Shown here piece after piece: positions 24,846 to 33,398 of a DNA stretch of 64,000 nucleotides. Below the pieces are notes generated by a model. That model saw only the letters and a list, made by a program, of their open reading frames with translations. It was not told the DNA's origin and ran no database searches. A program made the position numbers and the translations under genes. Each line of letters begins with the position of its first letter. Within the stretch, counting starts at the first letter, position 1. The stretch is from Podarcis erhardii (lineage: Eukaryota), in NCBI GenBank assembly GCA_964252035.1, contig OZ176202.1, one strand, 5' to 3'.

Positions 24846-24873
24846 CAATGGTGCCCCGCAAGACGAATGCCTC
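24846..24873. mobile_element. Left end of a Tc1/mariner-type MITE split by the Gypsy insertion
   Basis: TA|CAATGGTGCCCCGCAAGACGAA matches the inverse of the right TIR TTCGTCTTGCGAGGCACCACTG|TA. Confidence 0.88.
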
Positions 24874-25472
24874 TGTGATGGCCTGGGATTCCGATTCAGA
24901 GGATGAACCAGAGGAATCCCAGCCTGCACAGGAGTCCCCGCCTCCAGGGCCGGCTGAACTGGGGCAAGGCCTAGATGCTGAAGAGCCTGCACCTGTGACA
25001 GAGCATCAGGAGCTGGCCCCAGGTGAAGCCCTTCTGGCCCCAGAGGGGCTTGACGACTCAGTGGCCACAGGTGAGCCTCCTCCAGGGCCCAGTAACCCTT
25101 CGGCCTCTCCTGATCTGCAGAGGCTTAGGGCAGAGAGGCGAAGGGAACTGGTTGCCCCCAGGAGGAGTGCTCGCCTTAAGGCCAGAGGAGGCGGGGCTCC
25201 TGGGGGTCGGGACCGCCCCCGGCCTTAGAAGAGGATAAAAGCCCAGTCAGCCTGGCCCCAGGTTGCGGGAGCAACGTCGTTGTTGGCTTTGGACCTTCCT
25301 GTGTTCCTGATCCCTGCTTGGCCTCCTGTTCCTGACTATCCGGTGTTCCAGTTCCCAGCTCGGCCTCCTGTTCCAGCGTACCTGTTCCCCGCCCGGCTCC
25401 CCGTCTTGGACCTCGCCCCTCTTCGTGTGGACTCTGCTTACACCCACGGTACCTTCCCCCGGGACCAGCACA
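24874..25472 (+). repeat. 5' LTR (599 bp)
   Basis: TGTGATGGCC...GGGACCAGCACA; no difference from the 3' LTR found by eye. Confidence 0.96.
25233..25241 (+). promoter_or_regulatory. TATA-like box of the LTR (GGATAAAAG)
   Basis: Only A/T-rich stretch in the GC-rich LTR; about 30 nt upstream of the inferred start site at 25265. Confidence 0.7.
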
Positions 25473-25474
25473 GT

Positions 25475-25484
25475 TTGCTCCCGC
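25475..25484 (+). promoter_or_regulatory. Self-priming primer-binding site TTGCTCCCGC
   Basis: Starts 2 nt after the LTR end; exact reverse complement of LTR 25265-25274 (GCGGGAGCAA); no TGG-type tRNA PBS. Confidence 0.8.
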
Positions 25485-25535
25485 CACACCCGCACTCCCC
25501 CTTAGTTGGGGTGCGTTCGGGAAGAGCCAGAGGCC

Positions 25536-28500
25536 ATGGCTGACCAGGCGGCTGCGCTGGTGGCATTGGCCCAGGAAAACCAGGCCTTGACCCACACCGT
25601 TCAGCAGCTAAGCGATGTGGTTGCGGCGCTTCAGCAGCGGTTGGAAGCCTTTCCAGATCCTGGGGCCGACGCCCTAGCTCCAGGCAAGTACCCAGTGGCC
25701 TTGCCAGAGAAATTTGATGGGACCCAGGCCAGTTTTCCCATGTTCCTCGCCCAGGCCAAGTTGTACATTCAGGGGCGAGCCCGGAACTTCCCTGACGACC
25801 GCACCAAGGTGCATTTTTTAATCAGTTTGTTAAAGGACCAGGCGGCCAAGTGGGCTTTGCCACTGCTCCGGCAAGACTCTCCTTTGCTAACGGACTATGT
25901 GGGGTTTTGTAACCACTTAGAGACTGCGTTTGGTAACCCACTGAAGGAGAGCCAAGCCAATCGGGCGATTCGTCGGTTGAGACAGGACAAGTCCACAGCC
26001 GCCGCCTACGCCACAGAATTTCGGCTGTTGGCACAAGACTTGTCTTGGAATGACTCTGCACTACGGGACCAGTATCTTGAGGGACTGTCGGACGAGATAC
26101 TGGACCAGTTGGCCATGATGGATCGTCCCACCACACTGGATACCCTCATTCAGCGGAGCCTGCAGATAGACGATCGGTTGGAGGACCGTCGCCAGACCCG
26201 AGACCGCCAGCACTCCCGACTCCTGGCGCCAGTCCTTCCCAGCAGGTCCACGCCCACAGCCGAGTTGCCAGTCGAGCCAACGCCGCTCGGGGCTGCGCGA
26301 CCTCGGCTCTCCCCCTCGGAGAAGTCGCGGCGTCGGGAGGGGAACCTGTGCCTTTACTGCGGTGGGGGTGGACATTACGCCCGTTCCTGTCCCGAGAAGC
26401 TACCAGTCGCAGGGAAACCGCCAACCTCGGTAGCCGAAGGCCCTAGCAACGTGGGGTCCCAAACCATGCAAGAAGGGCCCTCACCAGTAGAATTGCGACA
26501 TCTCATGGTACCGGTGCGTCTCTACCCTCCAGGTGGGCCCTGGATTCTTACCCACGCTTTGGTAGATTCGGGGGCAACCCGCTCCTATATGGACGCTGCC
26601 TTTGCCGCGCATCATCAGGTGCCACTTCAGAACAAGCCAGAACCGGTACAGGTGGAGGCAATTGACGGACGGCTCCTGCGTTCGGGTGCCGTCACTCGGG
26701 AGACCCAGCCCTTGGTCCTGTGTCTCCAGCAGCACCGGGAGGTGCGAACCTTGGACATTGCCTCCATGCCCCGGTTCCCCCTGGTGCTCGGAATGGACTG
26801 GCTAGAGGCTCACAACGTTCAGATTGACTGGGTCAAACGGACCGTACACTTCCCAGATCCATGTTCCCATGCTCAGTCGCAGATGCTAGCGGCCGCACCC
26901 ACGGAGGAGGCAGCACCCACGCTCCCAGCCGTGTACCGGGACTACCAAGACGTGTTCGAGGAACGGGGGGCAGACCAGCTGCCGCCGCATCGGTCTTTTG
27001 ACTGCGGCATAGACCTCCAGCCCGGAGCGCCCCTACCGGTGAGTCGCTTATACTCTCTAACAGAGCCAGAGCGCGAGGCTTTGCAGGACTTCTTGCGCAA
27101 GAACCTGGAGCGTGGGTTCATTAGGCCTTCCACCTCGCCTACTGCGGCACCAGTGCTCTTTGTTAAGAAGAAATGTGGGGAACTCCGTCCTTGCCATGAT
27201 TACCGAGCCCTAAACAAAATCACCATCCCAGACCGGTACCCCTTGCCCCTTATTTCGGAGTTGCTGGAGCGGGTGCAAGGGGCACAGGTGTTCACCAAGC
27301 TGGACCTCCGGGGGGCCTACAACTTGATTCGGATCCGAGCCGGGGATGAGTGGAAGACAGCGTTTGGGACCCGGTACGGGCAGTTCGAATACTTGGTTAT
27401 GCCTTTTGGTTTATGCAACGCGCCTGCTGTGTTCCAACGCTACATCAACCACGTGTTCCAGGATTTGTTAGACAAGTACGTGGTGGTGTACTTGGATGAC
27501 ATACTGGTTTACTCCCGTGACCCGGCTCGCCATGAGGGACATGTCCGGACCGTGCTGCAGCGCTTGCGTGAGCACCGTTTGTACGCAAAGCTCAGCAAGT
27601 GCGAGTTCCATCAGCGGACTGTGGACTTCCTTGGTCACCGGCTCTCTCCAGATGGGGTGCAGATGGACCCTGGGAAGGTGGCAGCGGTTTGAGAATGGGC
27701 GGCACCCCGGAACCGCAAGGACCTACAGCGTTTCCTGGGGTTCGCCAACTACTACCGGACCTTCATCGCAGATTATGCTCAGCGCACCACCCCGTTGACC
27801 CGGCTACTGCGCCCAAAGACGCCGTTTTCCTGGGACGAGGAGGCAGAGGAGGCGTTCCAGGGGTTGAAGGCCTGTTTCCAGAGGGCGCCGATCTTACAAC
27901 ATCCTGACCCCTCTCGACCCTTTGTGGTGGAGACCGACGCCTCCAGTACGGCTCTCGGTGCCGTCTTGTCTCAACAGAATGGACCTGAAGCGCCACTCTT
28001 GCCCTGTGCCTTCTATTCCCGCCAGCTCCTACCAGCGGAGCGTAACTATACTGTGTGGGAGCGGGAACTACTGGCCATCAAGGTGGCCTTTGAGGTCTGG
28101 CGCCACCATCTTGAGGGGGCACGACATCCGGTGGAGGTGAGAACCGACCACCGGAATCTGGAGTACCTCCAGACCACCCGCAAGCTGAACCAAAGACAGA
28201 TCCGGTGGGCGTTGTTCTTTTCCCGGTTCCAGTTCCGGATCCGCTATATCCCTAGCTCTCAGAACCAGAAGGCAGATGCCCTGTCCCGGAAACCTGAAGA
28301 CAACGCAGACACGGTACAGCAAGCAGAACCCACCACGATCCTACCTCCAGCTGCGTTCCTGGCCACCCAGGAGGCGGAACCACTGCAGGCTCGGGTGCGG
28401 GAACAGCAGCGGGTCGACGCTTGGGCCCAGGAACGACTCCGGGAGCTGGCTGAAGGGTCCAGCCCACAGTATCCGGGGCTGGTCCTGCATCAGGGCCTTC

Positions 28501-30209
28501 TGCTGCACCACGGCCGTCTGTACATCCCGCCAGGGCCACTGCGGCTGGAGGTTCTCCGGATGGCCCATGATGCCCCAGCAGCGGGGCACTTTGGACGGTA
28601 TCGGACCACCCATCTGGTCAGTCGTGAGTTTTGGTGGCCCCGCCTGAAGGCCGACGTGGCTCGCTACGTTGCTGGTTGTGATGTCTGCCGGCGCGCCAAG
28701 GGTCCTACCGGGCGACCCCCCGGCCTACTTCAGCCATTGCCAGTTCCACCGCGCCCTTGGCACACGGTTTCATTGGACTTTGTAGTGGACTTACCCCCGT
28801 CTCGTGGCTGTACCTGCCTTCTAGTGTTCTCCGACCATTTCACCAAGATGGTGCACTGCACCCCCTGCCCATCTGTACCCACAGCCAAGGAAACCGCTCA
28901 GCTGTACCTTCAGCATGTCTTCCGCCTGCATGGCCTACCAGAGCGCGTGGTGTCCGACCGGGGCGTTCAGTTCACATCCCGGTTCTGGCGAGCATTACAC
29001 CAGACCCTCGGGACAGAGGTCTGCCTCTCGTCAGCCTACCACCCACAGACCGATGGCCAGACGGAACGGGCGAACGCGGTGCTGGAGCAGTACCTCCGGT
29101 GTTACTGCAGCTACCAGCAGGATGACTGGGTCGACCACCTGGCATTGGCGGAGTTCGCCTACAACAACGCGGTGAATGCATCCACCCAGCAGACCCCGTT
29201 CCAGGCCAGTTACGGTTATCATCCACGGCTGTTTCCAGATGTGCTGCCGGCATCCGCAGTCCCGGCGGTGACGGAGTGGCTTCAAGAGCTCCAGTCCCAG
29301 CAACAGCTTTTGGTGGAGCAACTGCACCAGGCCAAGGAAGCGTACAAAGCCCAGGCCGACCGCCACCGCCAGGTGGGGCCGGAACTTCGCGTCGGTGACC
29401 TGGTTTGGCTCTCCACTCGCCACCTCCACCCCTCTCGACCTTCGCGGAAGTTGGACGCCCGCTTCAACGGCCCGTTCCCTATCGTGGACCAAGTCTCTCC
29501 TGTAGCATTCCGTCTCCGGTTACCCGCAACCCTGAAGGTTCACCCGGTCTTCCACAGGTCCCTGCTGAGTCCGGTGGCCCCACCCGACGAGTTCCACCCG
29601 AACCGTCCCCGTCCGCAGCCAGTGTTGGTTCAGGGAGAGCCTGAGTATGAGGTGGAACGCATCCTGGACTCCCGATACCGCAGGGGAAAGCTGCAGTATC
29701 TCATTGACTGGAAGGGGTATGGACCGGAGGACCGTTCCTGGGAACCAGCGGCCAACGTCCACGCACCTGCCTGCCTCCGAGAGTTCCATGCGACGTACCC
29801 CGGCAAGCCGGGTCCGGACCCTCGGTTGAGGGGGGGGCCTGGGAGGGGGGATGGTGTGATGGCCTGGGATTCCGATTCAGAGGATGAACCAGAGGAATCC
29901 CAGCCTGCACAGGAGTCCCCGCCTCCAGGGCCGGCTGAACTGGGGCAAGGCCTAGATGCTGAAGAGCCTGCACCTGTGACAGAGCATCAGGAGCTGGCCC
30001 CAGGTGAAGCCCTTCTGGCCCCAGAGGGGCTTGACGACTCAGTGGCCACAGGTGAGCCTCCTCCAGGGCCCAGTAACCCTTCGGCCTCTCCTGATCTGCA
30101 GAGGCTTAGGGCAGAGAGGCGAAGGGAACTGGTTGCCCCCAGGAGGAGTGCTCGCCTTAAGGCCAGAGGAGGCGGGGCTCCTGGGGGTCGGGACCGCCCC
30201 CGGCCTTAG
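25536..30209 (+). pseudogene. Single-frame gag-pol polyprotein (1557 codons) broken by one in-frame TGA at 27690-27692 (codon 719)
   Basis: GCCATGG start; PEG10/RTL-like capsid (PEKFDG...DDRTKVHFLISLL), CCHC knuckle CLYCGGGGHYARSC, protease LVDSGAT, RT YLDDILVY, RNase H VETDAS/DHRNL, IN HHCC and DDE, chromodomain EYEVERIL...IDWKGY...SWEP. Track ORFs 25506-27692 and 27795-30209 share one frame, and EWAAPRNRKDLQRFLGFANYYR follows the stop directly. Confidence 0.93.
29841..29851 (+). promoter_or_regulatory. Polypurine tract GGGAGGGGGGA
   Basis: Purine run ending 3 nt before the 3' LTR; also inside the pol reading frame. Confidence 0.85.
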
Positions 30210-30453
30210 AAGAGGATAAAAGCCCAGTCAGCCTGGCCCCAGGTTGCGGGAGCAACGTCGTTGTTGGCTTTGGACCTTCCTGTGTTCCTGATCCCTGCTT
30301 GGCCTCCTGTTCCTGACTATCCGGTGTTCCAGTTCCCAGCTCGGCCTCCTGTTCCAGCGTACCTGTTCCCCGCCCGGCTCCCCGTCTTGGACCTCGCCCC
30401 TCTTCGTGTGGACTCTGCTTACACCCACGGTACCTTCCCCCGGGACCAGCACA
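29855..30453 (+). repeat. 3' LTR (599 bp)
   Basis: Direct repeat of 24874-25472, followed by TSD GCCTC. Confidence 0.96.
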
Positions 30454-30458
30454 GCCTC

Positions 30459-30768
30459 GCAAGACGAAAAACCCGCTAGACGAAAGGGTTTTCCGTTTTG
30501 GAGGCGCTTCGCAAAACGAATTTCCCTATGGGCTTGCTTCGCAAGACGAAATGTCTTGTGAGTTTTTCCGACTTTTTTCCCCTCCCCCCCCCTTTTTCTA
30601 AGCCGCTAAGCTGCTTATCCGCTAAGCTGATAAGCCGCTAAAAGCCGCTAAAAGCCGCTAATAACGCTAATCTGCTAAGCCGTCAATGGGCTTGCTTCGC
30701 AAGACGAAAAAACCGCTGGACGAAGAGAATCGCGGAACGGATTCTTTTCGTCTTGCGAGGCACCACTG
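30459..30768. mobile_element. Remainder of the split MITE (about 338 bp when rejoined), with internal GCCGCTAA repeats
   Basis: Continues ...GCCTC|GCAAGACGAA; ends ...GCACCACTG followed by TA. Confidence 0.88.
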
Positions 30769-30889
30769 TAGTAAAATGAATAAATATACCATTATGTGGT
30801 GCAAATGAAAATAAGCCTCGTACTCTTCCCCACAGACTACTTAAGGCTGCTTGAAATCTCACAGCTCAAATGTTATTTGTATTTTCAAG

Positions 30890-31290: not shown

Positions 31291-31599
31291 CAGGGCCAGA
31301 TTTAGGCTTGATGAGGCCCTAAGCTACTGAAGGTAATAGGGCCCTTTATATGTCTAGCTGTCCTTTGTCAACAACAAATTGTCGCTGTTTTTTGTGTTGA
31401 ATATATGCTATATGGTAATTTATGGACCTACACAACACAAAACACTGTTGCTGTATGTAGGTTTTATTTTATTTGTTTTTCATCTTATATTTTGGAAATG
31501 TACACCCAGTTTTTTTCCCTTTTAATTTTTGGGGGGGGGCCTCAAGAAAGTGGGGCCCTAAACTATAGCTTGTTTAGCTTATACGTTAATCCGGCACTG
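31291..31599. mobile_element. hAT-type MITE ending 15 nt upstream of USH2A exon 66
   Basis: TIRs CAGGGCCAGATTTA and (reverse complement) CAGTGCCGGATTAA, 11 of 14; 8-bp TSD CCTTTTTT / CCTTTTTC. Confidence 0.8.
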
Positions 31600-31614
31600 C
31601 CTTTTTCTTATCAG

Positions 31615-31853
31615 CTGTCAGAAGGAACAGCGACTCAACAAACCATCCACGGCCTGAGGCCTTTTACCACTTATTCTGTTGGGGTCGAAGCCTGTACCTG
31701 TTTCAGCTGCTGCAGCAAAGGACCCGTGGCACATGTCACCACACAGCCAGCTCCACCCTCACAGCAGCCTCCTCCCTTCATTCACAGCATGACCTCAAGG
31801 AATGCTTCTTTGCAGTGGGATGCACCTCGGGAACCCAATGGCATTGTAAGAAG
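31615..31853 (+). CDS. USH2A: Usherin exon (human exon 66 equivalent)
   Basis: tatcag|CTGTCA...AAG|gtaact; 239 nt; LSEGTATQQTIHGLRPFTTY...EPNGIVR. Confidence 0.95.
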
Positions 31854-33398
31854 GTAACTGCTAGGATATACTTGGTATTGGAACTAACATCTGTGCTGGC
31901 TGGGCTGACTCTTCAGTTGATTTTCAAATGTCTGTCTTCCATTTTCTAGTCAACTTTAACAGCATTCACACCTGACACCAATAATAGGAAAGAGGCTAAA
32001 GGGTTTTTATTTTTTGTAAGTGACGTGAAGGAAATGACTCGGGATTTCAAAGACTGCCTAAGGAACACAATGCCCATTAATGTTAAAGAGCCTTATAAAA
32101 TGGAATCTCCTTGTAGGAGATGTTGGAACTCAGTTTTACTCAGAGTAAACCCATTTGGATTAATGAACATGACTAAGTTTGGTCCATTAATTTCAGAGGG
32201 TGTACTCTGAGTGACACTTAGTTGAGTGTACGCATTGCCCTCAAAACAAACTGGAATCCTAGCAATCAGTGTTTGGTGGGAAGAAGAACAGACTGAATCT
32301 GGTTGCTCCATCCAAACAGCTGGTTGGTGAGATTCCAAATGTTTATCTGCAGCCATGGTTGCTAGACTTGGCTGGAGACTATGTGCCACACCCTTTCACC
32401 AACATGGGGAAGGCGTTATTGGTTTGATTTCTTCTTGTTTTTCTTATGTATTTTGTGTTTTTTATCTTGTATTTCTGTGTTGTGAACTTCCCTGAGAGCT
32501 ATGGATGAAGGGCAATATACAATTTTAACAACAACAAGGGATATACAGGCAATGACCTACCATTCACATATAGCCAAATTAGAGGCTTATAGCTTAGTAA
32601 ACCCTCACCATCACGGTGATTACAGCATATGAACTAGCAAATACAAAAATAAAATAAAATAAAATAAAATCAGTGTCTTGTTGATGCCACCAAACTTAAT
32701 TTTCCTTAGACAAATCAAGAATGAATATCAGTGCCTAAGAAAACTAGGCAAATTAATTATCTGTTCCTTTGGAACTGACAGTCTTGGAAAAATCCCAGGC
32801 ATATAGATACTAGCTGTCTACAAATCAACATAGACCTTTTCTTCTTCTTGCCCTTGCCCTCCCCCTCCCCCGCTGCACTGTTTACCATCTAGCCTCCCCC
32901 CTACCATCTAGTTTGGAAAACTCAAAACCCAACACACTATTTTGTGACATGGATTTTAGAAATTTGTTGTTGGTGTGCCAGAATTTGTAACATTTTCCCA
33001 GACTTATAATGTATTAGGGTCTAAGCATTTGTAAATAGGATGCTGGCACTAAGGATCTGGAGAGACCCCTAGACATGCAGGTCTAGTTACCTTAAAAAGT
33101 TATCACTTCAATATTTTCAATACTGGCATACAGTTGAGTTTTCAATAATCATTGTAAGATGCTCTGGGATGCCCTGGCCAAGATAAAATGACTAGAAAAT
33201 TCAAAACATCATCATCAATTAATGTAGAATATTGTTAAAATATTGAATGTGATGTGCAGAGTTCTGCAGCAATTGCAACTTAATTAAGTTGAGAGCAGGT
33301 CCTTGTGTTTGACCAGCATCAAGACACATAAGCAGGAAAGGTAAGCTTGTGTTTACCTGCTAATTGTGGCTTATCAGTGCTTCCGTCTTTTCCTCCAG

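Follow-up and report, generated by a model that had tools for sequence, protein, structure and literature searches.

The genomic pol frame of a lacertid chromovirus in Podarcis erhardii runs without a stop through the chromodomain and the polypurine tract (PPT) until nucleotide (nt) 353 of the element's 3' long terminal repeat (LTR), so that U3 of the 3' LTR also encodes the end of pol. Evidence for constraint on the LTR-encoded tail at the protein level is real but modest and comes mainly from tail residues 68–101. This block contains RRSARLKA, an HMGN-like motif that was not noticed in the earlier note on this DNA, and on the basis of sequence the tail is tentatively proposed to act, next to the chromodomain, as a second tether to chromatin.

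Structure of the element and its read-through frame

The window (the whole stretch of 64,000 nucleotides that was analysed; contig OZ176202.1, assembly GCA_964252035.1) contains a full-length, self-priming Ty3/gypsy chromovirus at 24874–30453 on the plus strand, with a 5' LTR (24874–25472, +) and a 3' LTR (29855–30453, +) of 599 nt each that are identical (0 mismatches). The LTRs are flanked by a 5-nt target-site duplication, GCCTC (24869–24873 and 30454–30458). The element is nested in a short, abundant, DNA-transposon-like repeat (24848–24873 and 30454–30770), and RNA reads from other copies of this host repeat join 24868 to 30454, which corresponds to the empty site. Further downstream, at 31315–31857 (+), an open stretch resembles a fibronectin type III exon, which we take to be usherin-like; as such an exon it would place the element within an intron of that gene. 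The self-priming primer-binding site (25475–25484, +) is a 10-nt complement of LTR nt 392–401 (25265–25274, +), and the 5' end of the transcript, and with it the U3/R border, was placed near LTR nt 392 from this self-priming site and not from reads. A 42-nt tandem unit in R/U5 (30273–30355 and 25292–25374) varies in copy number among subfamily copies (+42, +84).

The first frame (25536–27692, +) was assigned from Pfam matches and open reading frames (ORFs) to gag (DUF4939, Ty3 capsid and CCHC), protease and the 5' part of reverse transcriptase (RT), and is closed in the window copy by an in-frame stop in RT at 27690–27692. The frame that follows (27693–30209) is open for 838 codons and comprises the rest of RT, RNase H and integrase (H2C2, rve core and SH3 region, with GPF at 29469; together 27693–29645, +), a type I chromodomain (29646–29789, +), the PPT (29841–29854, +), which is read in the pol frame, and the beginning of the 3' LTR. 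A run of eight G (29830–29837, +) lies upstream of the PPT. The earlier note had placed the chromodomain at about 29643–29790 with an aromatic cage of Y, W and Y; the Pfam Chromo match (residues 652–699 of the frame) agrees with this, the cage residues were found at 29646, 29709 and 29718, and the best PDB sequence matches of the domain were HP1/CBX chromodomains. The best-matching database proteins were Podarcis gene models with 96–97% identity.

The course of the frame, which according to the earlier note crosses chromodomain and PPT and enters the LTR at nt 2, was confirmed: the first codon that lies wholly in the LTR begins at its nt 2, and the TAG at 30207–30209 (LTR nt 353–355, +) comes after 117 codons. 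The tail begins with an acidic, Pro-rich part (29856–30059, +), followed by the constrained block of residues 68–101 (30060–30161, +), in which a Pro/Ser stretch precedes an Arg-rich one. Read-through of 'the whole U3' was an overstatement; with the transcript start placed near LTR nt 392, U3 is about 391 nt long, of which the ORF takes up about 355 nt (about nine tenths). It ends 5 nt before a TATA-like GATAAAA (30215–30221, +; LTR nt 361), which lies about 30 nt 5' of the inferred transcript start and to which a promoter role is ascribed from this position. The ATG at LTR nt 5 opens an ORF of 116 codons (24878–25228 in the 5' LTR). As the U3 of both LTRs in the next copy derives from the 3' LTR, the same ORF occurs in 5' and solo LTRs. 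An ORF of this kind in every LTR copy, as previously stated, holds for both LTRs of the window copy but not throughout the family, since the LTR ORF is short in 4 of the 99 copies sampled.

One given 138-codon frame remained open in 2.8% of base shuffles of the GC-rich stretch; stops number 11 and 5 in the two remaining forward frames of the 599-nt LTR. Openness in a single copy is therefore only modestly unusual, and the argument rests on the family data. Because of the in-frame stop in RT, the tail is regarded as a property of the family and is not expected to be made from the window copy.

Retention of the tail and selection on it

The genome contains 393 exact PPT–LTR junctions. For an unbiased sample, junctions were taken in genome order up to the 100th (contigs C1–C4); two of them were adjacent in one locus, which left 99 copies. 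Sampled in this way, without regard to frame, 78 of the 99 copies keep the read-through, and in 21 the frame closes at the LTR border or just within it. The 30 nearest copies (that of the window included), which were chosen by similarity, all reach the same stop. One early-stop copy was rearranged and was dropped; in each of the remaining 20 the G run at the position of 29830–29837 is changed, and homopolymer assembly error could be a source of such changes. When the early-stop copies were fetched whole, 7 of 20 still had at least 1,200 open codons upstream of the chromodomain. G-run slippage was found in 7/12 older and 13/86 younger copies (Fisher P 0.002; the age threshold was chosen by the authors and the older class includes rearranged copies), and a rank test of slippage against distance gave P 0.16. 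In a tree of 98 copies calculated with the G run left out, the 20 early-stop copies were scattered tips beside read-through sisters, and the sole supported pair among them consisted of two neighbouring tandem copies; this tree has a star-like shape and low resolution, with 15 of its 95 inner branches starred, which limits the power of the scattered-tip test. The idea that tail-less copies form a replicating lineage of their own, suggested by five subfamily-B copies, found no support in the same poorly resolved tree. RNA runs of a related organism contained low-level, mostly sense reads over the element, which shows transcription of the family, not translation.

Several observations concern the family at large. 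Two elements (L178 and L179, contig C1 near 17.13 Mb) are arranged in tandem about 5 kb apart, apparently with common LTRs, and a similar spacing occurs on C19 near 2.85 Mb; this 30-Mb contig was frequent among the matches for its size, as judged without a formal count. Five copies (L031, L032, L043, L048 and L051) combine a subfamily-B U3 with an R/U5 near the window type, which suggests recombination between subfamilies. Amphisbaenian and rattlesnake protein queries returned this lacertid family from the genome. A degenerate chromodomain pattern had 464 matches in the genome, and 1 among the 100 matches listed seemed unrelated. The chromodomain match at C2:123668754 is unlike the lacertid family and possibly belongs to another chromovirus family or to a host gene.

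Three LTR types were sampled: A (that of the window), B (with an 18-nt in-frame deletion in U3) and C (older copies); the integrases of subfamilies that read through differ at a dS of about 0.39. In the comparison of the window copy with B, dN/dS was 0.30–0.32 for the tail, 1.3–2.0 for the other two frames, 0.15–0.19 for the chromodomain and 0.05–0.07 for integrase, and the dS of the tail (0.23) equalled that of the chromodomain (0.23) at a tail dN of 0.07. In the tail, 19 of the 34 differences fell on third positions, and 17 were synonymous where 10.8 were expected (P 0.017; permutation preserving the base-change spectrum). Only three of 13 copy pairs tested reached P < 0.05, all of them A-type-versus-B pairs and not independent of each other. 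The indel common to copies in the core of the ORF is the in-frame one of 18 nt, and indels of a length not divisible by three are abundant downstream of the stop.

Changes shared among loci were compared with singletons across 197 loci. For the whole tail the comparison was negative (24 synonymous and 40 nonsynonymous versus 30 synonymous, 47 nonsynonymous and 1 stop; P 0.52), while the integrase control gave P 7e-11; as many of the 197 loci had been found by protein search, singletons are biased towards synonymous changes. Constraint differed along the tail. Among the 11 variants in residues 68–101 that are common to at least three of 197 loci, 8 are synonymous (3.6 expected, P 0.003), and the unbiased subset has 5 among 8 (P 0.045); this block was picked after the data had been seen. 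A scan over all codon windows for nonsynonymous depletion gave P 0.007, 0.03, 0.06 and 0.08 for lengths of 34, 30, 25 and 20 codons, and synonymous changes were not depleted in the same scan (P > 0.9), which favours constraint on the protein over constraint on the DNA. Residues 31–67 behave like a neutral spacer (11 of 37 synonymous, 10.3 expected). Shared replacements number 8 in residues 1–10 and 1 in residues 11–30, and the synonymous excess over residues 1–30 was not significant (P 0.12–0.28).

According to the earlier note, a stop right after the chromodomain in the family, or a U3 free of codon-level constraint, would have spoken against the coding tail. As the read-through is family-wide, the common state being one without such a stop, and as some codon-level constraint is present, local to residues 68–101 and weak over the whole tail, the coding tail stands on both points.

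The HMGN-like motif and readings of the tail

RRSARLKA (30141–30164, +) is identical to the HMGN sequence RRSARLSA in 7 of 8 positions. HMGN proteins bind the acidic patch of the nucleosome via RRSARLSA, and Dsup does so via PPRRSSRLT (PMC12487698); yeast Dot5 has RRSARIAT, in which arginines 1, 2 and 5 are described as required, likewise in Dsup (PMC13347269). All three arginines of this RRSxR core are present in the lacertid tail. PRRSARLKA is intact in 93 of the 99 unbiased copies, its nine codons have no change common to at least three of 197 loci, and the putative anchor arginine (fifth position) is altered in 4 of 197. Shuffling yielded RRSxRL at rates of 0.06% for the tail and 0.5% for the basic block, values that overstate the surprise as the motif had been recognised first; basic words of this kind are common. 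A search of the tail against Pfam returned 0 families at E ≤ 1 and no match to the HMGN family profile. The ESM Atlas contained clusters for the chromodomain only (top score 0.85), and all matches among the 60 of 71 shown in the PDB sequence search fell inside the chromodomain stretch. The predicted complex of tail residues 77–116 with H2A and H2B (score 0.02, mark 0.34) counts neither way. No 10-bp WW phasing was seen at 116 insertion flanks. At the 3' flanks of 157 insertions there was a target-site bias towards G/C at duplication positions 1 and 5 and towards T at flank position 8 (56%), and in 111 flanks GC content was 48.9% near the insertion versus 46.4% at 500–800 nt.

Tails of other lineages were studied in predicted proteins only, with LTR borders placed from a G-rich junction word. 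Of 12 squamate proteins listed, 9 run 67–125 residues past the chromodomain and 3 end at it. Tails of Crotalus (4 proteins), Vipera and Rhineura extend 86–107 residues past the junction word and have a net charge that falls between −15 and −23 over the first two thirds and between +4 and +9 over the final third; for the lacertid tail, with 116 residues past the junction word, the values are −19 and then +9. The tail of Anolis is less acidic, and those of Naja and Salvator are shorter and lack a basic end. Acidic-then-basic tails of similar length are thus present in snakes and an amphisbaenian, but without the HMGN-like motif: [RK]RSxR occurred in none of the 12 non-query squamate proteins listed, and C-terminal similarity between lacertid and other squamate tails was not significant (best P 0.049 of 9). 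Past the chromodomain, [RK]RSxR was present in 3 unnamed proteins among 112 scored matches; one of these three, a chromodomain protein (P0094), has a long tail ending in RRSARL, and DNA for it was not found in metagenome contigs, which leaves its LTR border putative. Fish matches typically end shortly past a GG-x-V-T junction word, and an SPE[FY] end was seen in 20 of 94 non-squamate, non-amphibian matches. As the fish proteins continue a little past the junction word, short read-through into the LTR looks routine in vertebrate chromoviruses. RGRP, which we take to be an AT-hook in the fish proteins, lies within 50 residues of the chromodomain in 32 of 98 non-squamate matches and is lacking in the lacertid family; fish examples with terminal SPE[FY] and RGRP between chromodomain and PPT include P0130 and P0114. 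Long, charged tails seem to be particular to squamates.

In the mechanism proposed here, the polyprotein would be translated to the U3 stop and the tail kept on the mature integrase, which past the chromodomain would consist of a linker (about 20 residues), an acidic and disordered spacer (about 65 residues) and the basic block that contains RRSARL. The arginines of the basic block would dock on the H2A–H2B acidic patch in the manner of HMGN, Dsup and Dot5, with the chromodomain reading methyl-lysine meanwhile, and the acidic spacer would provide reach and be free to vary. Such a module would improve capture of chromatin and would be kept in replicating lineages, weakly and without one fixed sequence across squamates. 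The read-through in 78 of 99 copies, the local constraint, the retention of the motif, the recurring charge layout, the RRSARL end of P0094 and the precedent of foamy virus Gag argue for such a tether; the negative whole-tail test, the one-fifth or so of copies that are tail-less and the absence of the motif from the other squamate proteins listed argue against it. Taken together these make the tether plausible but somewhat short of probable. A broader account, slightly less likely, is that squamate chromoviruses turned most of the promoter DNA of U3 into a coding exon for a long tail and that lacertids reached an HMGN-type motif on this path; the integrase would then have two chromatin readers, a methyl-lysine cage and an arginine anchor, the second copied into thousands of LTRs.

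The tail may instead be translated and selected with the basic block as a nuclear localization signal (NLS) or as a general DNA- or RNA-binding segment, the match to HMGN being a coincidence of an Arg-rich helix. Snake and amphisbaenian tails, which retain basic charge and runs of Arg and not RRSARL, are in line with this, and a basic C-terminal NLS is known for Ty1 integrase and has been suggested for beet CRM integrases (PMC3605345). General basicity does not explain why S, A and L of the motif are also free of changes common to at least three loci, nor the rarity of the exact RRSxRL word in composition-matched shuffles, and we regard this reading as rather unlikely. Somewhat more doubtful is a near-neutral by-product, in which pol of the sushi type ends slightly inside the LTR, a GC-rich U3 happens to be short of stops, and the conservation is that of promoter DNA or reflects recent ancestry. 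The early stops of fish relatives past the junction word, the proportion of shuffles with an open frame, the negative whole-tail test, the tail-less fifth of the copies and the youth of the families are all compatible with it. It is opposed by the lack of synonymous depletion where nonsynonymous changes are depleted, by a tail dS equal to that of the chromodomain at a much lower dN, by a phase that was kept across subfamilies despite the slippery G run, and by the recurrence of long acidic-then-basic tails in three other squamate lineages.

Translation of the 116-codon LTR ORF as a protein of its own, from host read-in or spliced transcripts in the manner of nef or sag, is highly improbable. 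All 90 of 90 copies examined begin with MAW, some Podarcis gene models (P0002, P0005–P0008) start with the LTR ORF fused to gag or to a receptor or host domain, and U3 RNA reads come from both strands. However, the ATG precedes the inferred transcript start by about 390 nt, so that a separate LTR protein would need host read-in transcription, and on this ground independent expression of the 116-codon ORF finds no support. Conservation of the ATG is explained by TGTGATG, which at the same time forms the attachment end for integrase; the gene models, as unverified predictions, are probably annotation artefacts, and no U3-to-gag splice joint was present among those listed for 4 RNA runs of low depth. 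Hardly more credible, and if anything a shade less so, is that the acidic N-terminal stretch (WDSDSEDE...) is the functional part, either by docking a host factor or by damping the basic block from within. In its favour, most long squamate tails have acidic Ser/Asp/Glu sequence after the junction word, and residues 11–30 have only the single shared replacement, but the eight in residues 1–10 and the lack of a significant synonymous excess over residues 1–30 count against it.

If the tether is real, then together with the AT-hook-like words after fish chromodomains the segment after the chromodomain would be a slot that HMG-type chromatin motifs have come to occupy more than once. Should the motif not bind nucleosomes, the tail would be a longer-than-usual case of a known read-through. 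The U3 also stands as a clear case of DNA with two uses, as promoter and as coding sequence, and its selection signal is measurable. For annotation it is relevant that the LTR ORF turns up in Podarcis gene models fused to gag or host domains.

Relation to known systems

In lentiviral nef and MMTV sag, coding sequence overlaps U3 and belongs to separate accessory genes expressed from spliced mRNAs. The lacertid ORF shares the overlap with U3 and differs in that its frame is continuous with pol.

With its Ty3/gypsy domain order, integrase in last position, C-terminal chromodomain and self-priming primer-binding site, the lacertid element has the features of the Tf1/sushi group, for which the self-priming layout is described (PMC6317226). 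It has in common with the V-clade of this group (Sushi-ichi, Amn) the self-priming primer-binding site, the order PR-RT-RH-IN, GPF, a type I chromodomain and a 5-nt duplication (PMC6317226); sequence identity to a Labeo polyprotein is 45% over 532 aa, and the comparison with the V-clade is pairwise only. Fish relatives end soon past the junction word and often carry RGRP, whereas the lacertid family has no RGRP and a tail of 117 codons. Sushi LTR models, in the passages covered, make no mention of ORFs (PMC3601003).

In plant CRM group A the integrase C-terminus is likewise encoded in the 3' LTR, where it contains a CR motif that is thought to target chromatin (PMC3059260). The analogy drawn in the earlier note is overstated; it extends to the LTR-encoded tail and not to CRM membership. 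Elements of CRM group A have the CR motif instead of a chromodomain, are primed by tRNA-Met and are centromeric (PMC3059260), whereas the lacertid element, of the self-priming Tf1/sushi type, retains a canonical type I chromodomain and a primer-binding site that matches its own LTR, which places it outside CRM group A; the 100 junctions listed lie along contigs C1–C4. The beet elements Bingo1–4 and Bingo7 have a chromodomain upstream of the PPT and an ORF that extends into the LTR (PMC3605345). Their chromodomain is of group II, and the extension length, constraint and motif are not given in section 7 (PMC3605345). A retained chromodomain combined with LTR read-through, which had been considered potentially new, is thus published for beet, and its short version appears routine in fish. 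In the literature covered, which was judged mostly by title and abstract with subscription-only chromovirus surveys outside the scope, neither a squamate pol–U3 read-through nor an HMGN-like motif in an integrase was found, and no test of insertion-site choice in vertebrate chromoviruses was found either.

The sequences of HMGN, Dsup and Dot5 (RRSARLSA, RRSSRLTS and RRSARIAT) resemble the lacertid RRSARLKA and are set in a similarly disordered, charged context (PMC12487698, PMC13347269). Unlike these, the lacertid motif, a putative nucleosome binder, is located on a retrotransposon integrase and is LTR-encoded. HMGN-like motifs outside HMGN are described for Dsup and Dot5 (PMC12487698, PMC13347269), and one on an integrase would parallel foamy virus Gag, in which an arginine anchor on the H2A–H2B acidic patch tethers the integration complex (PMC6042332). 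The foamy virus anchor differs in sequence, is part of Gag and is not encoded by the LTR (PMC6042332), whereas the lacertid motif is LTR-encoded and belongs to integrase.
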